Translations under genes and position numbers: made by a program | Notes under the pieces: generated by a model | Database searches by the model: none | What the model was told of the DNA's origin: nothing | The model's input: the letters and a program-made list of their open reading frames with translations, nothing else | NCBI GenBank assembly: GCA_963667725.2 | Contig: CAXXHO010000004.1 | Location: forward strand, 72,892-136,891 | Origin: Treponemataceae bacterium | GTDB lineage: Bacteria > Spirochaetota > Spirochaetia > Treponematales > Rectinemataceae | Length of the DNA: 64,000 bases | Reading direction: 5' to 3' | Shown: one piece after another, positions 1-44,871 of the stretch | Position numbering within the stretch: the stretch's first letter is position 1 | How the letters are laid out: each line of letters opens with the position of its first letter

Positions 1-807
1 CGAGGGTATGTACCCCTGGCGGGAGAGGGTGGCATGGTTGGAATCACGGCCTTTCGCCGGTATTTTCCTGGCGTGCCGCCGAGAGGACATAAGGGCTTCC
101 AGGCCATCGAGGGTGGCGAGGTACGCTTTAAGGCCGGCCTGGCCTTGTTTCAGCACTTCGGCGAGGCGCGCTTTGTCGGAGCGCAGTGTTTCGTCGAGCT
201 GATAGCACAGGTTGAGGAGCTCGTTCATTTTGGCGAGGTGCGTGGCGAGCTGTTTTTCTTCAGCTTCAGACGCTTCGTCCAGGTTGTGGCGAACGATGCG
301 CATCCAGAGAAGGAAGCGTTCAAAAATCTCCATAAGGGCTTCGCGGAGATAGTTTGCCTGCGGGTTCTCAATGATGGAGAGATCGATGCCATCGAGGATG
401 GCCTCCGCCGCGCCGCGCGCGCAGAGCCTCAGCGCTTTGCGTCCGGATTCGGGAATGCCCGTTACGCAGAGGCCCACGAGCGTTCGATCGATCGCACTTT
501 CCATGAGCCGTTCCCGAAAGGCCGGGTCGGAGGCGAGCTTTTTCTTGGTGAGTTTGCCGATTGCCGCATAGTGTCCGAGTTCGACGGCGAGGAAGTTTTC
601 AATATCGGCCGCATCAACCGAAAGGTCGTATTCCTCGGCGAGGTCGTGAAAGGGGTCGCGGGAGGGCAATGCGCCCTGGGTGATGTCTTGAAGCATTTCC
701 TGCATGAGGGCCAGCTCTTTATCGGAGAGTCCCTCCAGCATGGCATTGAAGGCATTGCCGATCGTCGCGGCATCGAGGGGGTCTCTGCTCTTTTTCGTGG
801 TTCCCAT
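1..807 (-). CDS. hypothetical alpha-helical protein, 3' end runs off the window
   Basis: ATG at 807 (MGTTKKSRDPLDAATIGNAF...) preceded by a TAGAGT -10-like hexamer; it is the antisense register of the listed 34..861 + shadow ORF; I did not check every codon. Confidence 0.5.
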   Translation of the reverse strand, partial: MGTTKKSRDPLDAATIGNAFNAMLEGLSDKELALMQEMLQDITQGALPSRDPFHDLAEEYDLSVDAADIENFLAVELGHYAAIGKLTKKKLASDPAFRERLMESAIDRTLVGLCVTGIPESGRKALRLCARGAAEAILDGIDLSIIENPQANYLREALMEIFERFLLWMRIVRHNLDEASEAEEKQLATHLAKMNELLNLCYQLDETLRSDKARLAEVLKQGQAGLKAYLATLDGLEALMSSRRHARKIPAKGRDSNHATLSRQGYIPS

Positions 808-841
808 GGGTGTTTACTCTATGATGTTTCTTTGGTTTTTG

Positions 842-885
842 CCAGAAGGTTTTCCTGGTAGTCCTGATGGTCCTGCTATCCTGTT
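842..885 (+). repeat. ACAGGA-box element E1 (right arm only)
   Basis: TTTCCTGGTAGTCCTGATGGTCCTGCTATCCTGT matches the right arm of the full copies. Confidence 0.75.
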
Positions 886-890
886 AAAAA

Positions 891-923
891 GTTGAAAATT
901 GGGGTCTGACCCCGAAGCTAGAG
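891..923. repeat. GGGGTCWGACCCC REP-like hairpin, copy 1
   Basis: GGGGTCTGACCCC at 901-913; left flank GTTGAAAATT resembles the other copies. Confidence 0.7.
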
Positions 924-2231
924 CGCCCACCAGGGGATGGCGGTGACTGTGTCGCTTATGCGAAGGGGATACGGGGCACGGCAAACGATGTATCCCTGAG
1001 GCGCGACGGCCTTATGATCCTGCAGGAACGCCTCGAGATGGCGCGCATCCTTTTTTGTCGGGTTTTCCGTCCATTTCACCTCTATCGGGACAAGCGCTCC
1101 CGCACGCTCCACGATAAAATCAATCTCAGCTCCGCCCGCGGTGCGATAATAGCTGAGTTTCGCGTCTCCGCGATAGGCAAGCCTCTTATAGAGCTCTATG
1201 CCCACCCATTGTTCAAAAAGAGGGCCCGGGTTCGCGAGCACCGTGTCCGGACCGAAGGAAAGCCCCGCCAGCGCATTCCGCACGCCGAGATCGATGAAAA
1301 AGAATCGGGGGCTGGAAAGCGCGGTCTTGCGCGGGCTTCCGGAAAAAGCGGGTACCGTGAATCCAAGAAACATGTCCTCGAGAAGCTGATAATGCGCCTT
1401 GATCGTGGGCGAGGAGACTCCCGATTCTTTGGCGATCCCTGAAAAGTTGACAATGCTCCCCGATTCGGCGGCCGCGAGCGACAAGAATCGCAGGAAAGGC
1501 CCCCACGCCCTTATCTGCGCTTCCCGATGAAGCTCCTCCTCGACATACGCGCCCGCATAGGCGCGAAGCACGTCGCTCCTATCGGAGCGCTCGACCGCAA
1601 TTCCGGGAAGATCGCCAAAAGTCATCCTATCCTCGAGGCTCCTCGGCGGAAAGGGTATCTTCAGGGAAGGTTCATCCTGAAGACAGGGAAGCAGGCTTCG
1701 CCTTCCGGCGAGTCGGTCGATAGGATATCCCACGGGGATCGTTTGTTCGTACTCGGCGCTGGTGAGCGGATAGAGTCGATGCATGAAGCTTCTGCCGGGG
1801 AGCAAATTGGCGCCGATGCGCCTGAGCCGCCGCGCCGAGCTCCCGCAAAGTATGAAACGGCTGCGCCGCTCTTCCGGCAAAATTCGTTTTTCCTCATCGT
1901 AAAGAAATTGGACCGCATCGAAAAGCTCCGGTACGGTTTGGGCCTCGTCAAGGAAGACCCATCGCGGAGTACCCGCGCGAGGGTTCCCCGAATCGGGGAG
2001 CGCTCGGTAAAGATCGATGAACCTCCCGGGAGCGGCGGCGAACCGCATCCGCAGGGAGGGATCGGAAAAATCGAAGACGAGCGCATCGGAGGGAATACAG
2101 CTTCTAATGAGCGTCGATTTCCCCGTTTGACGAGCGCCGAACATGATATGGACATAGGGCGCCGCCAATTTTTTAGAAAACTCCCCGAAATAAAGTCGAT
2201 CGAACAGTTCCATATCCGAATCATCGAACAT
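918..2231 (-). CDS. AAA_14 ATPase with C-terminal DUF4143 (PD-(D/E)XK-like) domain
   Basis: Walker A GARQTGKS, Walker B FLDEAQ, ILCGSS, and C-terminal EIDFIVE...PIEVK. Confidence 0.9.
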   Translation of the reverse strand: MFDDSDMELFDRLYFGEFSKKLAAPYVHIMFGARQTGKSTLIRSCIPSDALVFDFSDPSLRMRFAAAPGRFIDLYRALPDSGNPRAGTPRWVFLDEAQTVPELFDAVQFLYDEEKRILPEERRSRFILCGSSARRLRRIGANLLPGRSFMHRLYPLTSAEYEQTIPVGYPIDRLAGRRSLLPCLQDEPSLKIPFPPRSLEDRMTFGDLPGIAVERSDRSDVLRAYAGAYVEEELHREAQIRAWGPFLRFLSLAAAESGSIVNFSGIAKESGVSSPTIKAHYQLLEDMFLGFTVPAFSGSPRKTALSSPRFFFIDLGVRNALAGLSFGPDTVLANPGPLFEQWVGIELYKRLAYRGDAKLSYYRTAGGAEIDFIVERAGALVPIEVKWTENPTKKDARHLEAFLQDHKAVAPQGYIVCRAPYPLRISDTVTAIPWWAL

Positions 2232-2253
2232 TTGCCCAGAATTGTAAACTATT

Positions 2254-2282
2254 ACTTTAAATAATTTGAGTATTTTTAAAGT
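2254..2282. promoter_or_regulatory. imperfect palindrome (putative operator) upstream of the AAA_14 gene; -10 TACAAT on the - strand
   Basis: ACTTTAAATA-n7-TATTTTTAAAGT in an AT-rich island ~22 bp upstream of the ATG. Confidence 0.45.
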
Positions 2283-2304
2283 GTTGCTTTTAATTTGTTG
2301 ACAA

Positions 2305-2483
2305 GACAGGATTACAGGATGGGACAGGATTTACAGGAAGGAGTTTCGGGTTAGGAAAGAGGACGCTGCGCGCTTCTCGGAGCTTGGCGCGGTTACCGCG
2401 GTTACCTATCGCTGGACTTCTCTTTCTTGACCAAAGGCGCTTTCCTGTAGGTCCTGAAGGTCCTGTCGTCCTGTCGTCCTGTC
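2305..2483 (+). repeat. ACAGGA-box inverted-arm element E2
   Basis: left arm GACAGGATTACAGGATGGGACAGGATTTACAGGAAG...GGGTTAGGAAAG; right arm CTTTCTTGACCAAAG...TTTCCTGTAGGTCCTGAAGGTCCTGTCGTCCTGTC. Confidence 0.95.
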
Positions 2484-2569
2484 CTTGGGCTTCTTGAATT
2501 ACGGGAAGCCGCGGAGATACTTAAACTTATCGGAGTTTCCATTTTCCACGCATCACCGCCTGGGAGGAA

Positions 2570-3547
2570 ATGATGAACAAAAAGGCTACCCGGCATTTTG
2601 GATTCCCGTCGATCATCCTGGCGCTCCTCGCGCTGGCGGCATGGGGCGCGCTGGCCGCCTGCAGCCTGGACACCTACGAACCCAAGGAAAACGAAGTGAA
2701 GGTGACCATCTCGGGCCTGGGCGACAAGGCCGTCCTTGCCCGCGAAAGCCTTGGCGCCGAGAAGGCGCGGGGCTTCGCGGCGTCCTGGGTGAAGGTGGCG
2801 GTGATCGACGGCGACGGCGCCCAAACCGGATCGGGCAGCCTCGCCCTGGAGAACGGCGTCTGGGAAGGCTACGTCCAGCTGTCCGGCCCGGGCGCGATGA
2901 CCTTCATCGTCTCCGCCGGAACGGCGGCAGACCAGGTCTCGTGGATGGGCAACGGCGCCCTGACCGTCGGCGGGAAAGGCCAGGAGATCACCGTGACGGT
3001 GACGGTGCCCGCCCTCGGCGCGAAGGGCCCCGCCGGCGGCTCGATCTTCTACGACAAGGGCAGCTACTCGAACGGCTGGCGATACCTGGAAGCCTCGCCC
3101 ACCGACACCGCGGCGACGGCCTCCGTTTCCGACAATGGGTACCGGCTCTGGGCGGCCCAGACAACCTATGTCGTGGGCAACACCTACGCGGGGATCGGCT
3201 ACGGCAAGGAGAACACGGACTGGATCCAGGCCGCGGGCAACGCCACGATGTACCCGGCCGCCTGGTATTGCGCCGAATTGGAATGCGGCGGCGCGGCCGA
3301 CTGGTTCCTGCCCTCGTGGGACGAGCTTGCCGAGATGCGGAAGGTCATCGGCCACGCCGGCTTCCATGTCGAGTATCAAGGCGCCTTTTGGTCTTCGACC
3401 GAGCGGACGGCCCTGGACGGCGGCACGGACGCGGCCTACTACGTCTACACAGACGCCTACAAGACGACGAAGGGTCCGGCGCTGAAGACCAACGCGGACG
3501 TGTACGTGAAGGCCGCGCGGCGGTTTTTATGTAAGAGGACAGGATGA
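2570..3547 (+). CDS. lipoprotein with C-terminal DUF1566/Lcl-like (CLec-fold) domain
   Basis: GGGAGG RBS; signal peptide with LAAC lipobox; motifs GPAGGSIFYDKG...WRYLEA, DWFLPSWDEL, FWSS. Confidence 0.75.
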   Translation: MMNKKATRHFGFPSIILALLALAAWGALAACSLDTYEPKENEVKVTISGLGDKAVLARESLGAEKARGFAASWVKVAVIDGDGAQTGSGSLALENGVWEGYVQLSGPGAMTFIVSAGTAADQVSWMGNGALTVGGKGQEITVTVTVPALGAKGPAGGSIFYDKGSYSNGWRYLEASPTDTAATASVSDNGYRLWAAQTTYVVGNTYAGIGYGKENTDWIQAAGNATMYPAAWYCAELECGGAADWFLPSWDELAEMRKVIGHAGFHVEYQGAFWSSTERTALDGGTDAAYYVYTDAYKTTKGPALKTNADVYVKAARRFLCKRTG

Positions 3548-3702
3548 CGGGAATGGGACAGGATTTACTGAGAGAATGTTTTTGGGTTAGGAAAGACGAC
3601 GTTGTGCGCTTCTCGGGGACTGGCACGGTTGCCTATCGCCGCGCTTCTCTTTCTTGACCAAAGGTTCTTTCCTGTAGGTCCTGATGGTCCTGTCGTCCTG
3701 TC
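3538..3702 (+). repeat. ACAGGA-box inverted-arm element E3
   Basis: same arms as E2 with a related spacer; supplies the TGA stop of the upstream lipoprotein. Confidence 0.95.
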
Positions 3703-3754
3703 AGATTCCCGAAGAGGGAGCCGGACCATCGGGCTGGCTGCGCTAGCGCTTCAG

Positions 3755-4093
3755 TCATGCCTTTGAGAGTTCGTTTTCAAGCGCTTTCTGCATGAGCTGG
3801 TTCAGGGAGATCCCCTGCTCCACCGCCGTTCGCTTTGCTCTTTTATGCAGTTCGGGCGATATTCTCACGTTGAAGCTTCCCTTATAGGATTTTTCAGTTT
3901 CCTTTTCCTCTCGCTTGCAGGTTTCAAGATAGTCTTCAACGGATTCCTTAAAGGCGGATTTGAGGGCGTCGACGCTTTTCGCCTCAAAGGTCACCAAGTC
4001 GTCTATCCCTTCCAGCTTGCCATAGAAGATTTCGTCTTCAGCGCAGTAATGTACCGAGCCCATATAGTCTTTATAGGTAAGAACGTCTTTCAT
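3755..4093 (-). CDS. hicB: HicB-family antitoxin (no adjacent hicA)
   Basis: YKDYMGSV...FYGKLEGIDDLVTFE...SVEDYLETC...YKGSFNVRISPELH...SLNQ. Confidence 0.9.
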   Translation of the reverse strand: MKDVLTYKDYMGSVHYCAEDEIFYGKLEGIDDLVTFEAKSVDALKSAFKESVEDYLETCKREEKETEKSYKGSFNVRISPELHKRAKRTAVEQGISLNQLMQKALENELSKA

Positions 4094-4107
4094 TGTCTTT
4101 ATTATAC

Positions 4108-4266
4108 GACAGGACTACGGGATGGGACAGGATTTACAAGAAGGAGCTTTTAGGTTAGGAGGGCGCGCGGCGCTTATCGGAGCCTATTTAGGTTATGCAT
4201 ACTTGCTCTTCTCTTTCTTAACCAAAGGTTCTTTCCTGTAGGTCCTGATGGTCCTGTCGTCCTGTC
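4108..4266 (+). repeat. ACAGGA-box inverted-arm element E4
   Basis: same arms; its right arm encodes the GxxExxY C-terminal tail and stop codon on the - strand. Confidence 0.95.
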
Positions 4267-4646
4267 GTGGTTTTGGGCGTGTAGTCGCGGTACTTGCGCT
4301 TGAAGGTGATGTCCTGGGGGCCGAAGTTGATCACGAGGCCGGTGGGGGTGTCCGTGGCCTTGAGGTAGTTCACGAGCTGGACTTCGTGGGCTTTGGCGAT
4401 GGCCTCGACGGCTTTGAGCTCGAGGATCACGCGGCCTTTGACGATGACGTCGGCGAAGAAGGAGCCGATGACGGTTCCGTCGTAGAAGACGTCGATGGGC
4501 GCCTCGATGATGAAGGGCAAGGCGGCTTTGTGCAGTTCCATGGCCATGGCTTGCTTGTAGACGGATTCCAGGAAGCCGGCGCCGAGGGTGTTGTACACCT
4601 TGAACGCGCACCCGATGATTTTTTCCGTGAGCGGGTCGTCGATCAT
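4218..4646 (-). CDS. GxxExxY protein (PD-(D/E)XK nuclease fold, PDDEXK_3 type)
   Basis: LGAGFLESVY signature, FFADVIV...ILELKAV, QLVNYLKAT...GLVINFG. Confidence 0.95.
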   Translation of the reverse strand: MIDDPLTEKIIGCAFKVYNTLGAGFLESVYKQAMAMELHKAALPFIIEAPIDVFYDGTVIGSFFADVIVKGRVILELKAVEAIAKAHEVQLVNYLKATDTPTGLVINFGPQDITFKRKYRDYTPKTTTGRQDHQDLQERTFG

Positions 4647-4690
4647 GCTAATATTCCGCGCAAAGATAGGGCTCTTGATTCAAATAATTG

Positions 4691-4853
4691 GACAGGACGA
4701 CAGGAATGGGACAGGATTCACAGGAAGCGTTTTTGGGTTAAGAGAGCGCGCGGCTCTTCTCTTAACCCTTTTTCATTTTCTCCGCTCTTCTCTTCTCTTT
4801 CTTTCTTAATCAAAAGCTTTTTCCTGTCAGTCTTGGGGTCCTGTTATCCTGTC
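4691..4853 (+). repeat. ACAGGA-box inverted-arm element E5
   Basis: same arms; inner hairpin GGGTTAAGAG...CTCTTAACCC followed by a pyrimidine tract. Confidence 0.95.
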
Positions 4854-6727
4854 CTACTAGGAAGGAAGAGGCGGGAGGGGTGCTCCGGCCCCAGATGCAG
4901 GGCGTTCGTCGCCGCACGCCAGGTGCGGGAGGAGCCCTCGGGCTCGCCTGTGTTGGGGTTGACGTCGAAGTGGGGGAAGTTGGAGCTGGAGACGTCCAGC
5001 CGGATGCGGTGGCCGGCGGCGAAGAGGTTGCTGGTGGGGAAGGCGCGCACCGTGACCCTGTAGATCCTGCCGGGCTGCAGGGGCTCGGGCGATTCCCAGG
5101 AGTCGCGGTAGCGGGCGCGCAGGATGCCGTCCGTGAGGTTCATGGCGAAGCCGCGGGGATAGTCGGCGGAGGGCGGGTAGACGTCGATCAGCTTGATGGT
5201 GAAGTCGGTGTCCGGGCAGTCGGAGGAGATCCAGAGCTCGGCCTCGATGGGGCCGGTCACCTCGAGGGCGCTCGCCAGGGGCTCGGTTTGGAAGACGAGG
5301 ATGTCGGGGCGCGCCGCGAGGGGGAGGCCGGGGTGGGAGCAGCCGAAGAAGCGTTCGTCTTCGACTTGGTCGAAGGCGCCGCCGCGCATGATGGGTTCGC
5401 CGGAGGTGATGGAGCCGCCGATGGAGGGGACGGGGTCGCGGGGGTCGTAGCGGTAGGCGATCGAGGTTTCCTCTTGTGGCGGCGTGTCGCCCAGGAGCCC
5501 GCCGGGGAGGAGGTGGAGGGCTCGGCGCTCGGCGTCGGGCAGGGGCCAGTCGGGGGCGCTGCGCCATTCGCCGCCGTGCTCGAGCCGGCCCTGGGCGTTT
5601 TTGCGGCCGGAGCCGCCGCCCATGCGGAAATAGCGCACAGGGAGATCGGATTGGGCCGCGCCGGAGGCGGGGGCTTTGAGCCAGCGGTCGAACCAGGTGA
5701 GGCGGAGCTGGAGGAAGTCGGGGGCCACGTTCCCCTCCAGGGGGGCGCGGGGGCCGAAATCGACGTCGCCCGCATAGGTGAGGCAGCGGTCGCCGTGGGT
5801 CCAGGGGCCAAGGATGAGGGCCAGGGGGCCTTTGCCTCGCCGCTTGAGGTCCTGGTAGTTCTCGGTGGCGGTGCGGGGGTAGGGGTCGTACCAGCTGGAC
5901 ATGTGGACCATGGGGATGGCCGCGAAGCCGTCCATGTAGGCGGCGGCGCAGATGCCGAGCCGGCGCCAGAATTCGTCGTACCGGCCGTGGCCCCACTGCT
6001 CCAATAAATAGTCCTCGAAGTCGGGGAGCCAGCGCAGGGGGGACTGGCCGGCGCGCCAGGGGAGGGCGCGGAACCAGGCGCGGATGTGGGCGAATTCGGA
6101 CTCCAGCGCGCCCTTGACGAGGGGGTCGGCAGCGGCCTCGGGGCTCTGGATGGCCTGGCGCATGGCCCAGGTGGCCTGCTTGAGCTCGAAGGCCCCGCCC
6201 TGCCTGATGCCGCCCTGGTAGGCGTCGTGAAAGCCGCCGGAGTCGACGAACATGGCCTTGAGGGCGGTGGGCGCCAGGCAGGCGGCGGCCACTTGGGTGT
6301 GGGCCGCATAGGAGAGGCCCATAGTGCCGACCTTGCCGTCACACCAGCTCTGGGCGGCGATCCAGGCGATGGCGTCGTAGCCGTCCTCGCCTTCGGAGAG
6401 GTATTTGGTGAAGGTTCCTTCCGAGCGGTGGGTGCCGCGGCAGTCCTGGTAGACGAAGGCGTAGCCCCGCTCGACGAAGTAGGCGGCCACTTCAGCGCGG
6501 CCGAGGGGCTGGGGGTTGGCGACGCTCCGCTCCGAGCGGGAGGGGGCGGTTTTGTCGTAGGGGGTGCGCTCGAGGATGACGGGGAAAGACCCTGGGAGAG
6601 CGGCTTGGCCGCCGCTCTCCCCGCCGGCCGCGGCGGGCAGGTAGACGTCGGTGGCGAGGCGGACGCCGTCGCGCATCGGGACCATGACGTTGGAAAGGAG
6701 CACGTAGGTTTTCTTCGTTTCGGGCAT
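4844..6727 (-). CDS. CocE/NonD family hydrolase (alpha/beta hydrolase, peptidase S15)
   Basis: MRDGVRLATDVYLP, RTPY, GxSY nucleophile (GLSYAA), GPWTH, GHRIRLDVSSSNFPHFDVN; GGAGG RBS before ATG 6727. Confidence 0.92.
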   Translation of the reverse strand: MPETKKTYVLLSNVMVPMRDGVRLATDVYLPAAAGGESGGQAALPGSFPVILERTPYDKTAPSRSERSVANPQPLGRAEVAAYFVERGYAFVYQDCRGTHRSEGTFTKYLSEGEDGYDAIAWIAAQSWCDGKVGTMGLSYAAHTQVAAACLAPTALKAMFVDSGGFHDAYQGGIRQGGAFELKQATWAMRQAIQSPEAAADPLVKGALESEFAHIRAWFRALPWRAGQSPLRWLPDFEDYLLEQWGHGRYDEFWRRLGICAAAYMDGFAAIPMVHMSSWYDPYPRTATENYQDLKRRGKGPLALILGPWTHGDRCLTYAGDVDFGPRAPLEGNVAPDFLQLRLTWFDRWLKAPASGAAQSDLPVRYFRMGGGSGRKNAQGRLEHGGEWRSAPDWPLPDAERRALHLLPGGLLGDTPPQEETSIAYRYDPRDPVPSIGGSITSGEPIMRGGAFDQVEDERFFGCSHPGLPLAARPDILVFQTEPLASALEVTGPIEAELWISSDCPDTDFTIKLIDVYPPSADYPRGFAMNLTDGILRARYRDSWESPEPLQPGRIYRVTVRAFPTSNLFAAGHRIRLDVSSSNFPHFDVNPNTGEPEGSSRTWRAATNALHLGPEHPSRLFLPSRTG

Positions 6728-16226: not shown

Positions 16227-16410
16227 GACAGGACGACAGGAGGGGACAGGATTTACAGGAAATGTGTTTAGGTTAAGAGAACACGCGGCTCTTCTCTTAA
16301 CCCTTTTTTTATTTCCATTTCTTCTCTTCTCTTTCTTTCTTAACCAAAAGCTCTTTCCTGTCAGTCCTGAGGAGTCCTGGGATCCTGTCGTGGAGTCCTG
16401 TCGTCCTGTC
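16227..16410 (+). repeat. ACAGGA-box inverted-arm element E6
   Basis: same arms as E5, right arm with extra boxes. Confidence 0.95.
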
Positions 16411-17697: not shown

Positions 17698-17876
17698 GAC
17701 AGGACGATACGACAGGACGACAGGACTAGACAGGATCTACAGGAAATGTGTTTGGGTTAAGAGAACGCGCGGCTCTTCTCCTAACCTTTTTTTTAATCTT
17801 TTCTTCTCTTCTCTTCTCTTCTCTTTCTTAACCAAAAGCTCCTTCCTGTCAGTCCTGTGTTTCCTGTCGTCCTGTC
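17698..17876 (+). repeat. ACAGGA-box inverted-arm element E7
   Basis: begins immediately after the TAG of the GGDEF gene; same arms and CTTCT tract. Confidence 0.95.
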
Positions 17877-19722: not shown

Positions 19723-20511
19723 ATGCGCGCCACTACGCTGAGCAGGGCGGCATTCCGTCTCGCGGCGGCGCTGCTGTTGGCGGCGGCCTTCCCTTCGTTC
19801 GTCGCGGCCCAGAATCTGGCGGCCTGGTTCGCCGCGCCGGCGAACCAGGCCGCGTACGGTGCCCTGGCCGCTGAGGCTCAGCAGCTGGCGGCGGCCCTCT
19901 CCCAGGCCGGACTCTCGGACAGCCTCCTGGCCGATCGCTTAGTCGAAGCGGCCAAAAAACGCGTAGCCCCGGCGACGTTAGCCGCCACCTTGCGCGAGGA
20001 CACCCAGCGCTGCCTGGCGGTGGCCGCCTCGCTCAGAGGCCTCGGGCTCCTACCCTCGGACCCAAAAAAAGCCTCGGCGTCCGTCGAGCAGGCATCCCTC
20101 ATCCTCCGCGCGGGCATCTCGGAGCAAGCCCTCCGGGCCGCCTTTGCGGCCGCCGCGGACAAGCTCGGCGCGAACCAGGCCGCCGTGGACCGGGCGCTGG
20201 CCGCCCTCTCCGTGGTCGCCACGCTCGAGGCCGAGTACCGCCTCTCCGATGCCGAGGTTCTCGCCCTGGCGACGGGGCTGGTCGACTGCGATCTCTCCAA
20301 CGGCAAGCTCAATTCCCTGGTGGCCGCGATCAAGTCCGCGGTCAAGAAAGGCCTATCCGTCTCCCAGGCGATCGACGATTCCCTGGCCAAGGTCACCAAG
20401 GGCAAATCCTCCAACGCCAACACCGAAAAGTCGAACAATGCCGACAAGGAAAAGAAGTCCAAGGAGAACAACGGCAAGGGGAGCGGCTCGAAGAAGGGGC
20501 TGAGCGGGTAG
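19723..20511 (+). CDS. exported hypothetical protein with K/N/G-rich tail
   Basis: signal peptide; translationally adjacent to the anti-sigma gene. Confidence 0.7.
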   Translation: MRATTLSRAAFRLAAALLLAAAFPSFVAAQNLAAWFAAPANQAAYGALAAEAQQLAAALSQAGLSDSLLADRLVEAAKKRVAPATLAATLREDTQRCLAVAASLRGLGLLPSDPKKASASVEQASLILRAGISEQALRAAFAAAADKLGANQAAVDRALAALSVVATLEAEYRLSDAEVLALATGLVDCDLSNGKLNSLVAAIKSAVKKGLSVSQAIDDSLAKVTKGKSSNANTEKSNNADKEKKSKENNGKGSGSKKGLSG

Positions 20512-20525
20512 GCTTTGCCGTTGAC

Positions 20526-21674
20526 TTAGGCTCCAGCATCCAATAGCTGGGCAACGAGGGCATCGAGCGGGCAAAAAACAACGCGGAGATTGCCAATTTC
20601 CCGTTCGTAGGACCGATGCAGATCCGCCGCGACCACGTAATTGCGCCCCTGCGGATGAAGGGCTCTGAAGGCTCGAATGCCGTTAGGCTCGAATGCGTCG
20701 GCGGACCATTTTACCTCTATCGCGCTGGGCGCTGTTCCGCGCGGCGCCCAAACAAAGTCGACTTCATGCCCTTCCTTGTCGCGCCAGGTGAACGGCGCGC
20801 TGTCCTGAAGTCCCGCGTTCATTTCGTTCAAGACGAGGTGTTCCCAGAAAAAGCCTTTTTCCTTTGCCGGAATCTCATGCAGCCCCTGCGCCCAGGCAAT
20901 GAACCCTGTATCGAAGCCATAGACGCGCGGTGTGGCCGTGATTTCCCTGGCGTTCCCCCCATGATAGGGACGCACGACGTGTACGAGATGCGTTGCTTCT
21001 AATATCCCGAGATAATTTATAATAGTGGTGCGGCTTACGCCGCATGAGGCCGCGAACGCGGTGGCGTTGAATTGCCCTCCGCTCTGCGCCAGAAGCAGTT
21101 CAGCGAATTTCAGGAACGAGGCGCGGCGCTCCAAGCGAAACAATTCGAGAATATCGCGCGCCCAGAATGCTTCTATCCATTCCGAATACTCTCTGTCATC
21201 GCGCGCTTCGGCAAGGAAGAATCCAGGCAAGCCGCCGTTCAGGAACCGTCTTGAACGATCGCCGTATCCCGGGAACGCGGTATCGTTTTCGCAGAGCGGG
21301 GTGAGCCTGAGTTCCAGCTTTCTGCCCGCCAAGGTATCTTTGAACTTTGCTGATGCGCCTAAGGTCGACGACCCTGTCGCTACAATGCGGATTTCCGGGA
21401 AATGGTCGGCGGCAATTTTAAGGAGGAGCGCGGGGTCGGCGAGCCGATGGATTTCGTCGAGCGCGAGGATTCCGCTCCCGATAGCTTTGAGGAATGCTTC
21501 AGGATCCTCAATCTCCCTTCGCACTGAAGGCAACTCGCAATCAAAGTAGCGGATTCCCTCCAAATTCTTGCAGAGAACGGTCTTTCCCACCCTACGGACG
21601 CCTGACAGCCAGACGATCGGACGCTTTTCCCATAGCGATCGGATTCTTGCTTCCCACCATTGCCTTTGTATCAT
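20526..21674 (-). CDS. AAA_14 ATPase with DUF4143 domain (second paralogue)
   Basis: GVRRVGKT, LDEIH, ATGSS, EVDFV...AIEVK. Confidence 0.9.
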   Translation of the reverse strand: MIQRQWWEARIRSLWEKRPIVWLSGVRRVGKTVLCKNLEGIRYFDCELPSVRREIEDPEAFLKAIGSGILALDEIHRLADPALLLKIAADHFPEIRIVATGSSTLGASAKFKDTLAGRKLELRLTPLCENDTAFPGYGDRSRRFLNGGLPGFFLAEARDDREYSEWIEAFWARDILELFRLERRASFLKFAELLLAQSGGQFNATAFAASCGVSRTTIINYLGILEATHLVHVVRPYHGGNAREITATPRVYGFDTGFIAWAQGLHEIPAKEKGFFWEHLVLNEMNAGLQDSAPFTWRDKEGHEVDFVWAPRGTAPSAIEVKWSADAFEPNGIRAFRALHPQGRNYVVAADLHRSYEREIGNLRVVFCPLDALVAQLLDAGA

Positions 21675-21695
21675 ACAGGAAGCTTAATGCAGTCT

Positions 21696-21729
21696 ATGAC
21701 CAAACGCAAGTCTACTTGCGTTTGGTCAT
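21696..21729. promoter_or_regulatory. perfect 16-bp-arm palindrome (putative operator) upstream of the second AAA_14 gene
   Basis: ATGACCAAACGCAAGT-CT-ACTTGCGTTTGGTCAT, followed by a third half-site ATGACGAAACGAAAAT. Confidence 0.7.
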
Positions 21730-21766
21730 GACGAAACGAAAATAGACTTACTTTTTTAGCGGTCGA

Positions 21767-21817
21767 TCCTGACAGTCCTGCCATCCTGTCCAAAAGTCAA
21801 AATTGAGGTCTGCCCCC
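21767..21817 (+). repeat. ACAGGA half element E8 followed by a degenerate GGGGTC hairpin
   Basis: TCCTGACAGTCCTGCCATCCTGTCCAAAAGTCAAAATTGAGGTCTGCCCCC, homologous to 862-913. Confidence 0.7.
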
Positions 21818-27919: not shown

Positions 27920-28082
27920 GACAGGATGACAGGATAAGAGGACAGGATTTACAGGAAAAGGACTTTGGTTAGGATAGCGTTTTCTTCGCATCCTGTTATC
28001 GCGTCTTTCTTCTTCTCTCTTTCTTCTCTTCTCTCAACCAAAAACTCTTTCCTGCCAGTCCTGCTCATCCCGTTATCCTGTC
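27920..28082 (+). repeat. ACAGGA-box inverted-arm element E9
   Basis: GACAGGATGACAGGATAAGAGGACAGGATTTACAGGAAAAG...TTTGGTTAGGA; right arm CAACCAAAAACTCTTTCCTGCCAGTCCTG...ATCCTGTC. Confidence 0.92.
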
Positions 28083-31739: not shown

Positions 31740-32151
31740 CGGATTAGTGTAACCCGACCGGCGAGTACTGACCAGGGGCCTCATCCGGAGCGTCGCTCCC
31801 CAACGCCCCCGAGGGACTGACACCTCCGTCCCCACGCACCCCGCACGAAGCCCGCAGCGCTCCGAGGCGCGGACGGAGCGTGTCTGTCCCAAACGGAACC
31901 CCAACGCCCCCCAACGCCCCCGCGGGACTGACACCTCCGTCCCCACGTACCCCGCCCAGACCCCGCCCGCTCGCGGAGGCGCGGACGGAGCGTGTCTGTC
32001 CCAAACGGAACCCCAACGCCCCCGCGGGACTGACACCGTCCGTCCCCACGCACCCCGCCCGGCCCCCGCCGCTCGCGGAGGCGTGGACGGAGTGTGTCTG
32101 TCCCAAACGGAACCCCAACGCTCCCCAACGCGCCCCGCGGGGACTGACACC

Positions 32152-33785
32152 GAGCCTGTCGAAATGAAAATGGGTACCCATAAGGATACCCAATGGCAGG
32201 ATCAGAAGAATCAATTGGCCTGCGAGGAATGGTGTTGCTTACTCTGGTAAGTGAAGCGTTTTCGCGACTGTAGCCTCGACCAGCCGTACCTGCTGCCGCC
32301 CTCTGTGTCCGACTGGCTGCCCGAGCAGCATGTGGCTCGATTCATCGGCGAAGTGGTCGACACTCTCGACCTGAGCAGCATCCTCAGCCAGTACCGACGC
32401 AACGACGCCCGCGGCGCCCCTGGCCTACCATCCGGTGATGCTCGTCCGCCTGTTGCTGTATGCCTACTGCATCGGTCAACCCAGCTCCCGCCGCATCGAG
32501 CGCGCCACCTACGAAGACATCGCCTTCCGCTACCTGAGCGCCGATCAGCACCCCCGATCACGCCACCATCGCGCACTTCCGCCAGCAACACCTCGAGCAA
32601 CTGGCCGCGCTGTTCACCGACGGTCTGGCGATGTGCCGTGAGGCGGGACTGGGTAAGCTCGGCAAGGTGCTGCTGGACGGCACCAAGATGGGCGCCAACG
32701 CCGCCCGGCAGCAATCGCGCAGCATGGAGAAGCTGACGCGCGAAGAAGAGCGCCTTCGCCAGCAGGTCGAACAACTGCTGGCCGAAGCCCAGACCACCGA
32801 TCAGAACGAGGATCAACTCTACGGCGCGGATCGGAGCGGCGACGAGTTGCCGGAAGGCTTGTCGGACGTCCACCAACGGCTGCAGCGCATTCAGGAAGCC
32901 AAACAGGCACTCCAGGAGCGCAACAAAGAGCGGCTCAAGGAGGCCGAAGAGGAACGCAAGGACGCAAAAGGCCAGCGGCAAGCCGCCGACAGCAGCGCAG
33001 AAGAAGCGCTACACGCGGGCGCGAGAAGCGGTCGCAAAGAATCTGGGCGCCATCAACCTGACCGATCCCGACTCGCGCATCATGAAAGCCGGCAATCGCG
33101 GCGGATACTTGCAGGGTTACAACGCTCAGGCAGCGGTCACCGAAGACCAGATCATCATCGCGGCCGACGTTACCGAACAGGAATGCGACAAGCAACAGCT
33201 GGTGCCGATGATGGTGTGCATTCGCGAAGGGTTGAAGGGTGAGCCGACGGCGGTGGTGGCCGACACGGGATACTACAGCGACGAAGCGGTGACGGACGCA
33301 TCGCTGGCGGAAGTAGACCTGTATGTGCCGCCGGACCGGGCCAAGCGGGGCGAGCCGTTGAAGGCGAACGCGCCGACGAGTGCGACGGCAGCGTCGATGC
33401 GAGAGAAGCTGTGGAGCGAAGCGGGCATCGAGTGCTATCAGCTGCGTGCTCAGACGATTGAGCCGGTGTTTGGGCAGATCAAGGAAGGTCGGGGGCTGCG
33501 TCGGTTCTTATTGCGGGGCACCAAGAAAGTGCGTTGTGAGTGGAAGCTGATTGCGCTGACGCACAATCTGCTGAAGCTCTACCGGCACAAGAATCCGGGT
33601 CGGAACGGCAGCCCATGGCGGCGCAAGGAGCGGAGAAGGGTGGTCGCGGTGCCGGCACCGTTCGGGTTGGGTTGCCGTTGCCGCCAGTCGCGACCGTGTC
33701 GCACACTGGCGGCTTGAGTCGGCACTTTTTGACGCGCGATACCCCTGCGCGCACTCTTCTGCCGGAAGTTTCATTTCGACAGCTC
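32152..33785 (+). mobile_element. IS1182-family insertion sequence
   Basis: terminal IRs GAGCCTGTCGAAATGAAA / TTTCATTTCGACAGCTC; CACC duplicated at 32148-32151 and 33786-33789. Confidence 0.9.
32251..33717 (+). CDS. IS1182-family DDE transposase (several frameshifts)
   Basis: LLPPSVSDWLP, SSRRIERA...FRYL, LDGTKMGANA, TDPDSRIMK, GYNAQ, ADTGY, IEPVFGQIK..RGLRRFLLRG. Confidence 0.9.
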
Positions 33786-34301
33786 CACCTCCGTCCCGAC
33801 GCGCCACGCCCGGCCCCCGTCACTCGCGGAGGCGCGGACGGAGTGTGTCTGTCCCAAACGGAACCTCAACGCTTCCCCAACGCCCCCGCGGGACTGACAC
33901 CTCCGTCCCCACGTGCCACGCCCAGACCCCGCCGCTCGCGGAGGCGCGGACGGAGTGTGTCTGTCCCAAACGGAACCCCAACGCCCCCCAACGCGCCCGC
34001 GGGACTGACACCTCCGTCCCCACGCGCCACGCCCAGACCCCGCCGCTCGCGGAGGCGCGGACGGAGTGTGTCTGTCCCAAACGGAACCTCAACGCCCCCC
34101 AACGCCCCCGCGGGACTGACACCTCCGTCCCTACGCGCCACGCCCAGACCCCCGCCGCTCGCGGAGGCGCGACGGAGCGTGTCTGTCCCAAACGGAACCT
34201 CAACGCCCCCCTCAACGCCCCCCCAACGCCCCCGTCTGTCCCGAACGGAGGCCCATCACCCCTGGCCTCACCAGCCACCCAAGTCCCGACAATCACGCCG
34301 A

Positions 34302-36569: not shown

Positions 36570-37495
36570 ATGGACCCTTTCGCCGATCTGATCGGTTTGC
36601 TCAAACCGCGGGCCACGCTGTGGGGGCCGCATCCAGGGCACCGGCAGGTGGGCCGTCTCCTTTCGCAAGCGCGATGACCTCCTCTTCTGCTGGGTCGAAG
36701 CTGGCGAGTGCCTTCTGACACGCCCCCATGCCGACTCGGGCGCGGCTGAGAACCGGAGACTTCGCCTTCATCCGGACCTCGTCGCCGTTTGCTCTGACAT
36801 CCGATCCGAAGCTGGAACCGGCAGACAGCGAGGCCATCGTCGCCGCGACAGGGGAGTACCGAGCTTGTGCTGGGAGACGCGACGGGGACCTGCACCATGC
36901 TCCGATGTGGTCGTTTCGTCTTCGACACGAACAACGAAGCGTTGCTGTGGAGCCTTCTTCCCTCTCTCATTCACATCCCGGCTGACCAGCAGATCTCCTG
37001 GCGCCTGCGCTCGTTACTCAACATGAACGACGCCGAAGGTCAACATCCGGGACCCGGCAGCGATCTCGTCGTCAGCCGTCTGATGGAGTTGACCCTCCTG
37101 GAACTGCTGCGTAGCGAAGTAGTGCGGCTGAAACCGGGAACAAAAGGTCTGCTCTCCGGTCTCGCCGATCCGGTCATCGCGAAATCGCTCTCAGCGATGC
37201 ATCGCGACGTCGCCGGCGTATGGACGGTGGCCCGCCTTGCACGCATCTCCGGCCGTCTCGCGGTCAACGCTCGCGGCCCGGTTTTCGGGCCGTGATGGGG
37301 ATCGGCCCCATCGAGTACCTGGCAAACTGGCGGATCGCCTTGGCGAAAGACGAGCTCTCCTGCGGAACAAAGACCATCGGAGAGATTGCTCTGTCCGTAG
37401 GTTTTCACTCTTCGAGCGCCTTCAGCACCGCATTCACCCGCGCGGCAGGTTGCTCGCCAAAACGATTCGCGACCCGGAGAGTGCCCGGCAAATAG
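36570..37495 (+). CDS. AraC family regulator with cupin domain (frameshifted)
   Basis: MDPFADLI..., LLSGLADPVIAKSL, WTVARLA, PIEYLANWRIALAK, IALSVGF..SSAFSTAF. Confidence 0.85.
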
Positions 37496-44686: not shown

Positions 44687-44852
44687 GGGGCTGGTCCCAT
44701 TGAGTACCTGCGAACTGGCGCATCGCCCTGGCGAAAGACGAACTTTCCTGCGGAACAAAGACCATCGGAGAGATTGCTCTGTCCGTAGGTCTTCACTCTT
44801 CGAGCGCCGTCAGCACCGCCTTCACTCGCGCGGCGGGTTGCTCTCCAAAACG
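44687..44852 (+). pseudogene. diverged duplicate of the araC 3' end (37297-37464)
   Basis: shared long tract CCTGCGGAACAAAGACCATCGGAGAGATTGCTCTGTCCGTAGGT with scattered substitutions elsewhere. Confidence 0.9.
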
Positions 44853-44871
44853 GTATGCGGCGCGGAGAGAA

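Follow-up and report, generated by a model that had tools for sequence, protein, structure and literature searches.

A family of ACAGGA-box elements and one subfamily of GxxExxY genes were found to be inherited together across many phyla, and our comparisons lead us to favour, by a modest degree, a reading in which the encoded nuclease would cut its cognate arms and host repair would copy or recombine them. The pairing of nuclease and repeat is real and apparently unpublished so far, and the mechanism is plausible. The window referred to below is the whole stretch of 64,000 nucleotides that was analyzed (C4:72892-136891 of assembly G000, C4 being contig CAXXHO010000004.1).

An arm profile detected seven full two-arm elements (159-184 bp each) and two half copies in the window, and the pattern GACAGGAY-N1-3-CRGGA had 25 matches there, whereas 100 order-2 Markov simulations averaged 0.07 and never exceeded 1. 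Each full element starts with GACAGGA, stops with TCCTGTC, carries four boxes per arm around a variable spacer and folds as a long hairpin. These results agree with a preliminary description of this DNA, which had reported seven full elements and two half copies and had placed the GxxExxY gene (4218-4646) between elements E4 (4108-4266) and E5 (4691-4853). The inverted arms that it reported were also present; in addition, the left and right arms are two distinguishable types, which have one polarity in all full copies on C4. This polarity is common to the full elements of this region on C4, C6 and C5, whatever the gene direction, and the GC skew was too weak to relate element polarity to the replication strand. 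The features are as follows (elements are given without a strand).

1-807, minus strand: 5΄ portion of a cassette gene of the pRiA4b-ORF3-like type; another copy, with 86% identity, lies farther on in the array
844-884: half element, one arm, adjoining a GGGGTCTGACCCC repeat at 902
918-2231, minus strand: AAA_14 + DUF4143 cassette gene, candidate defence gene (PADLOC PDC-S01)
2305-2483: element E2, 179 bp, with one extra box
2570-3547, plus strand: cassette gene in reverse orientation, with a weak Lcl C-terminal domain match below the Pfam cut-off
3538-3702: element E3, 165 bp
3755-4093, minus strand: hicB antitoxin gene without hicA
4108-4266: element E4, 159 bp, inverted ACAGGA-box arms and a variable spacer, covering the 3΄ end of the GxxExxY gene
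4218-4646, minus strand: GxxExxY / PDDEXK_3 nuclease gene, 142 aa, first array slot (profile match)
4691-4853: element E5, 163 bp, upstream of the GxxExxY gene, array head, with an inner hairpin in the spacer
16227-16410: solo element E6, between divergent genes
17698-17876: solo element E7, between convergent genes
20526-21674, minus strand: AAA_14 + DUF4143 gene (PDC-S01)
21762-21790: half element, upstream of the AAA-DUF4143 gene
27920-28082: solo element E8, between two peptidase genes

The family had been called dispersed, which understates the clustering of its copies: all 28 arms detected on contig C5 at E ≤ 0.01 fall within 676-785 kb, and most elements sit inside gene arrays. No flanking direct repeat was found for 29 of 33 elements, and the 2-3 bp repeats of the other four were at the chance level observed for cross-paired flanks. 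Neither a Y1 transposase nor a tyrosine recombinase maps inside the window, and a blastn search of the element DNA against 72,556 plasmid records yielded no match. The absence of a consistent target-site duplication and of a transposase in this segment, both noted previously, was thus borne out. At the E6 site, presence and absence were observed directly: C4 and C6 carry the element, whereas in C2 and in genome G023 the same genes flank a site without it, and the comparison of filled and empty sites revealed no target duplication. Both gain and loss are compatible with this pattern, as C2 and G023 are a sister pair. The E7 site contains a single arm in G023, and the site orthologous to E8 contains a decayed copy in C5. 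Positions 20500-21800 of the window form a further variable site, with an AAA gene and a half element in C4, a full element without the gene in C6, no element in C5 and other DNA, about 38 kb long, in C2 (C2:3976-42240).

MITEs are non-autonomous IS derivatives, which are short and have inverted ends, a variable interior and a target-site duplication. The elements described here are likewise short and inverted-ended, with variable interiors and presence or absence at orthologous sites; however, they lack the target-site duplication, and we found no transposase with these ends. The duplication analysis speaks against an IS-derived MITE (29/33 without a repeat, four at chance level, none at the filled and empty E6 sites). 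The possibility that the element is the end of a known IS or MITE, raised in the preliminary description, therefore receives no support from target duplications, and an attC identity was also excluded (see below).

The GxxExxY protein matched TIGR04256 at 136 bits (cut-off 35) and PF13366 at 132 bits (cut-off 22). Its alignment-based model (pLDDT 93, compared with 37 for single-sequence AlphaFold) had as the closest fold, among the Foldseek candidates, SSO0001 (E 2e-5, Z 10.6, rmsd 3.2 over 100 residues), which we take to be a Cas4. Lower-ranked folds included Hjc (Z 7.3) and the Cas4 Pcal_0546 (Z 7.0), as well as restriction-enzyme-like domains, lambda exonuclease and AddAB. Both the profiles and the modelled fold support the earlier PD-(D/E)XK assignment. 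A PDB sequence search gave a single match (E 0.19), a protein atlas search returned GxxExxY clusters alone, and searches of a phage protein collection and of PADLOC gave no match. The motif residues G24, E27, Y30, D66, E76-x-K78 and Q90xxxY94 are all present, QxxxY being a mark of RecB-type nucleases; among 133 aligned sequences, G24, E27, D66 and Y94 are invariant, and E76, K78 and Q90 are conserved in at least 90%. The alignment indicates that the protein keeps the full Cas4/lambda-exonuclease-like PD-(D/E)XK site, and dN/dS values of 0.06-0.14 among four orthologues indicate purifying selection. The gene most probably encodes an active nuclease. The nuclease domains of the Cas4, lambda exonuclease and AddAB type, which are the nearest solved structures, are alike in fold, whereas the GxxExxY protein is a minimal core of roughly 125 residues at an identity of 16%, and its invariant alignment columns hold no conserved cysteines. 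The shared Cas4-type fold by itself says nothing of GxxExxY function. The accessible text of one survey (PMC3424549) describes PDDEXK_3 as widespread, with multiple transfers and the function 'Unknown', and the full texts that we covered (main texts outside subscription journals) mention GxxExxY in passing only and leave the arms undescribed (e.g. 10.1101/2021.01.26.428298, PMC12085832).

The last ~16 codons of the gene had been assigned to the E4 arm. The arm does encode the final 15 codons and the stop codon; however, because six of six aligned relatives have no such tail and end before the arm, the arm-coded C terminus appears to be incidental read-through, and we rejected it as a functional feature. 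The AAA genes likewise read into arms.

We compared the flanks of related genes, using the best 80 of 582 loci from one scan of species-representative genomes, of which 79 were full-length and 72 had 200-bp flanks; the nearest named relatives were spirochaetes. At least two ACAGGA boxes were present on both sides in 64 of these 72 nearest relatives, but in only 2 of 249 distal control window pairs. The ranking of relatives by the arm-coded tail does not account for this enrichment, because boxes still occurred on both sides in 44 of the 49 loci where the match stopped short of the tail. An arm, the gene and an inverted arm made up the commonest layout (36/72), and 7 of 72 loci resembled the present one in having a full element on either side.

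A quick IQ-TREE analysis of 142 distinct genes over 121 columns (partial, N-containing and duplicate genes were dropped, and many forks are unresolved) covered 17 phylum labels in a sample enriched by design for the clade of the query. On this tree, 82 of 97 rows on the branch of the query had the ACAGGA label, which was absent from all 39 rows of the other main branch, and the motif label changed 10 times, compared with 46 after shuffling. Other GxxExxY branches carry other arm motifs, and paralogues within one genome may carry differing motifs (G069, G070, G071, G075). An out-of-sample set of 121 genomes from another order, in which 30 loci were read, agreed: the seven best-scoring loci were all ACAGGA-armed (one is in the seed genome and one has just three boxes), four of the next five genes (172-182 bits) had a related motif of the CACGGAT / CACAGAT type, and the remaining 18 loci never reached four ACAGGA boxes; below the top seven, genes carried either different motifs or none at all. 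Clade and motif do not correspond one-to-one, because CACAGAT-armed genes nest in the ACAGGA branch and because of the four genes at 172-182 bits. Within that limit, the enrichment of repeats beside GxxExxY genes and the covariation of protein clade with repeat type, both anticipated in the preliminary description, were observed, the latter in the tree and in the second order.

We also compared element abundance with gene presence in 69 genomes of the family. The 10 genomes with an ACAGGA-type gene had 20-131 pattern hits each, the 17 with only other GxxExxY types had 0-9, and five of the 42 without a gene over the cut-off reached at least 20. Thus, at least 20 hits were found in 10/10 genomes with the cognate gene and in 5/59 others, a line that was set after the counts had been seen; G067 was assigned by sequence and not by tree, and G058 and G027 were placed under 'other' although their genes nest in the broad branch, so that a count by branch gives 10/12. 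In the second order, at least 8 hits (again a post hoc line) were found in 8 of 11 genomes with a gene of at least 170 bits and in 11 of 109 others. Both counts include close kin, which are not independent of one another, and consist mostly of draft assemblies. Elements were nevertheless plentiful in genomes that yielded no cognate gene (G009, 57 hits; G006, 45; G061, 25) and in genomes without a GxxExxY gene of any kind (G139, 46 hits; the single-contig, 5.6-Mb G150, 11 hits). In G150 they lie between ordinary-looking ORFs and are more scattered than on C5, and tblastn found no GxxExxY remnant in seven arm-bearing stretches of G150, G158 and G092. The earlier suggestion that copy number tracks gene presence therefore holds as a higher count with the cognate gene, but these gene-less, element-rich genomes speak against a strict dependence of the elements on the gene.

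Covariation is expected for any gene that is co-inherited with its flanks, regardless of what those flanks do, and genomes of related organisms do not count as independent observations. It could accordingly be supposed that arms and gene simply travel together, that the arms serve as an operator or in self-protection, and that gene-less copies and shuffling result from host homologous recombination. The persistence of elements without the gene, the expectation of covariation from linkage alone and the variable crossover positions in mosaic elements (see below) are in line with such an arrangement. On the other hand, it does not explain why solo elements with sharp outer ends come and go between conserved genes, as exemplified by E6 and its absence from C2 and G023, or why, in two lineages, genomes that have the gene tend to have many copies. 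We regard this explanation as rather unlikely, though it is the most probable of the alternatives to the reading that we favour.

The sequence of the arms bears on whether they act as DNA or as RNA. In 38 canonical loci, the outer box was T-rich-GACAGGAT on both sides in 97-100% of cases, a value that is partly due to these loci having been selected by that anchor. An arm is more similar to its own partner (0.78) than to arms of other loci (0.60), and this pairing and covariation, together with the long hairpins, might be expected if the arms formed a stem processed from transcripts, as in rRNA intervening sequences, or served as an mRNA terminator or stabiliser. However, G-U and A-C mismatches on the sense strand were equally frequent (22:22) in 25 well-aligned arm pairs, the polarity does not change with the arrangement of the neighbouring genes (divergent, convergent or co-directional), no match to Rfam at the gathering threshold was found in positions 1-30000 of the window, and no terminator-like site was found in 2200-4950. 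The mismatch ratio and the Rfam result speak against a structured RNA of the intervening-sequence type, and the terminator search against a terminator role; an action of the arms as RNA is in our view very improbable. The arms seem to suit DNA binding sites in an inverted array better than an RNA stem.

We found that elements of this family punctuate arrays of co-oriented single genes, mostly AAA-DUF4143 (PDC-S01) genes, with hicAB and AbiE genes in addition; this strain-variable, element-delimited array of AAA-DUF4143 and toxin-antitoxin genes was overlooked in the preliminary description. An array that reaches C4:65233, about 7.7 kb to the left of the window, has elements E2-E5 at its head; it comprises 10 full elements, one half element and 10 slots. 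The slots contain the GxxExxY gene (1 of 10), hicB, the reversed Lcl-like gene, two genes of the pRiA4b-ORF3-like type and five AAA_14 + DUF4143 genes, one of which is a fragment. The array terminates at an AbiEi-like gene. All five AAA-DUF4143 proteins tested matched PADLOC PDC-S01, and an arm lies within 250 bp of 16 of the 23 AAA-DUF4143 genes in the assembly, as judged with a profile made from array members. The ends of the arrays adjoin genes resembling those of nucleotide-sugar and polysaccharide biosynthesis, as judged from translations (C4:58900-62200, C5:738400-742700), and GxxExxY genes or arms also lie beside genes of this type in G005, G008, G009, G048, G063 and G067. Two comparable arrays were found in G048 and one in G039, with looser clusters in G002 and G009, when 108 of 221 listed ORFs were scanned. 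At locus L177 (G004:C167:1-6867), three tandem 1857-bp units each contain a 520-aa ORF, with ACAGGA arms between them; the two ORFs scanned had no Pfam match, and arm-mediated amplification or a paralogue array is possible.

Contigs C2, C4, C5 and C6 are orthologous haplotypes mixed in assembly G000, with alignments of ~75-99% over the region; element counts per 'genome' are consequently pooled, and the chromosome of the window is only partly present. In the assembly, C1, C2, C4, C6 and C7 duplicate parts of C5 or of one another at ~75-99% identity, so it combines DNA of related organisms. Gene content and order vary among the three haplotypes C4, C5 and C6. The C5 array begins with GxxExxY and has six AAA-DUF4143 genes or fragments, the C6 array begins with an intact hicAB and lacks GxxExxY (C6 is only 71 kb long), and two AAA cassettes that C4 and C5 have in common are in swapped order. 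In G068, GxxExxY is followed by an internally deleted hicA and hicB. The homology of shared cassettes was observed to begin and stop at the element edge, with a few ragged bases on the gene side. The left arms averaged 0.895 in comparisons inside C5 and 0.72 when C4 was compared with C5. Arms at the same cassette in C4 and C5 (0.68-0.75) were no closer than random cross pairs (0.72); homogenisation was weaker for the right arms (0.85 versus 0.78). These values, taken from the sequence comparison, indicate that the arms are homogenised within each haplotype.

Apparent crossovers occur at differing positions in the spacers, and the elements are mosaic; scans for hybrid elements gave a suggestive result at C6:27985 and weak ones at C6:26445 and C6:25553. 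Public contigs from three runs in three studies contained two joints of equal depth, in which a single arm connects the AbiE side with the 3΄ end of a 440-aa ATPase. These joints skip about 4.2 kb, their short side is just 30-55 letters long, and they are supporting but not decisive for a rearrangement of the array. Over positions 1-6000 of the window, no joint skipping GxxExxY was found, and the contigs break at elements, which makes them uninformative on its absence. Contigs from RNA libraries cover parts of the array, a coverage that does not show transcription.

A different mobiliser might be considered, namely that the element is a MITE or REPIN moved by a RAYT, an integron integrase or another transposase, with GxxExxY as cargo and perhaps as a defence nuclease. 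The assembly contains RAYT-like Y1 genes and integron-type integrases, the cargo is mostly defence-like, and ACAGGA elements often abut a second repeat family. This second family, with a GGGGTC-A/T-GACCCC core (positions 902, 6764 and 12416 of the window), abuts several of the ACAGGA elements and flanks a RAYT-like Y1 gene (C4:25534-25863, C5:695224-695553); it resembles a conventional REP-RAYT system that occupies the hotspots of the ACAGGA elements as well. However, the repeats that flank RAYT-like genes are GGGGTCAGACCCC repeats and not ACAGGA arms, an attC core was found in 0 of 12 elements, the attC-like sites near an integrase are different sequences, and target duplication is absent. 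GxxExxY gave no PADLOC match, and mere cargo would not be expected to hold one motif over 17 phylum labels with arm-gene-arm as the commonest layout (36/72). We consider this explanation improbable.

To return to the cut-and-repair reading that we favour, the GxxExxY nuclease would recognise phased GACAGGAT boxes and nick or cut at or near the arms, and host repair would then copy arm-bounded DNA to new sites or recombine existing element copies. Arm binding, arm cleavage and a causal link from cleavage to spread are thereby predicted from sequence. To our knowledge, hydrolytic PD-(D/E)XK enzymes have no strand-transfer chemistry, so that cut-and-repair would be predicted and not true transposition; the lack of target duplications, the ragged junctions on the gene side and the mosaic elements fit such a process. 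In this spirochaete family, the accumulated elements would serve as recombination joints for stacking and shuffling candidate defence genes, and once elements exist, this shuffling could run on host recombination alone. Several observations are counter-points: C6, of just 71 kb, has an array without GxxExxY in that slot, GxxExxY takes a single one of the 10 C4 slots and yet 16 of 23 AAA-DUF4143 genes are arm-adjacent, and the variable crossover positions are explicable by host recombination without a nuclease. Even so, it seems likely that the nuclease underlies an undescribed form of repeat spreading and gene reshuffling that uses neither integrase nor transposase. A broader proposal, which we put forward tentatively and hold at somewhat below an even chance, is that GxxExxY proteins may be sequence-specific nucleases, each with its own arm, driving cut-and-repair mobility as a non-HUH, non-integrase counterpart of REPIN-RAYT systems and integrons that has been co-opted for arrays of PDC-S01, AbiE and toxin-antitoxin genes. 

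The assignment of a cognate DNA motif to each subfamily means that the function of GxxExxY is open to direct experiment, for which a protein of 125 residues and a short arm suffice. Should GxxExxY mobilise its arms, this would be a new chemistry for small mobile DNA, and nature would provide a whole set of compact nucleases with sequence specificity. The arrays offer a visible mechanism for stacking and exchanging PDC-S01-type genes without an integron, and this locus adds haplotype-level shuffling, homogenisation and gene-less counter-examples. PDC-S01 is described as the fourth most common candidate defence system in the available text of PMC12988326, where most such candidates are said to await validation; further context is given in PMC13356809. 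Two other repeats were noted in the window: direct repeats of about 111 bp in two clusters at 31794-34282 (families D1 and D2), which probably encode a repeat protein, and a 160-bp pair (D12; 37322-37481 and 44710-44869) with 90% identity, 7.4 kb apart.

Integron cassette arrays consist of tandem single-gene units of strain-variable order, with attC sites and IntI. Like them, the arrays described here are tandem single-gene units of strain-variable order and content, rich in toxin-antitoxin and defence-like genes, and the imperfect palindromes between them share one orientation and have become homogenised within lineages. In contrast to integrons, RYYYAAC/GTTRRRY cores occur in 0 of 12 C4 elements with both strands covered, PF00589 has no match on C4 or C6, and on C5 about 190 kb lie between the array and the nearest match, crossovers are seemingly not at one fixed position, and some cassettes are reversed. 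An attC or integron identity was therefore rejected (no core in 12 elements, no integrase by the array). Palindromes of 113-125 bp that resemble attC lie near an integrase gene at C5:540419-546288 and are unrelated to the ACAGGA elements.

REPIN-RAYT systems, as set out in the available text of Bertels and Rainey 2011 (PMC3116915) and Di Nocera 2013 (PMC3733652), share with the present pair the inverted doublets with variable spacers in extragenic space, the single enzyme gene flanked by cognate repeats whose type follows the enzyme subfamily or clade, and the excess of gene-less over gene-linked copies. They differ in their enzyme, an HUH/Y1 transposase instead of the PD-(D/E)XK protein assigned here by profile and modelled fold, and in their arm, a palindrome of 20-40 bp with a GTAG/CGTC tag instead of 3-4 phased direct boxes; 'ACAGGA' is absent from the main text of PMC3733652. 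Furthermore, the GxxExxY gene is often inside the hairpin, many paralogues are possible per genome (10 matches in G069), and the C5 arms are confined to 676-785 kb, whereas REPINs are spread randomly over extragenic space. The REPIN-RAYT-like reading of the preliminary description is thus strengthened by flank enrichment, clade-motif covariation and copy number, and weakened by the incidental arm-coded tail and the abundance of elements without the gene.

Rpn/YhgA-like nucleases promote recombination (PMC5350276) and were later described as anti-phage toxins (PMC10400941), as far as the accessible parts of these papers indicate. They are likewise stand-alone PD-(D/E)XK proteins, often multi-copy, and Rpn recombination is described there as proceeding by cutting and not by strand transfer; they differ in belonging to another Pfam family, in the little sequence specificity of RpnA and in that the abstract of PMC5350276 mentions no cognate repeat. 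They set a precedent for recombination promoted by a PD-(D/E)XK enzyme without a cognate repeat. The defining enzyme and site tests of both REPIN-RAYT systems and integrons fail for the pair described here, which resembles the former in its layout and integron arrays in its outcome.
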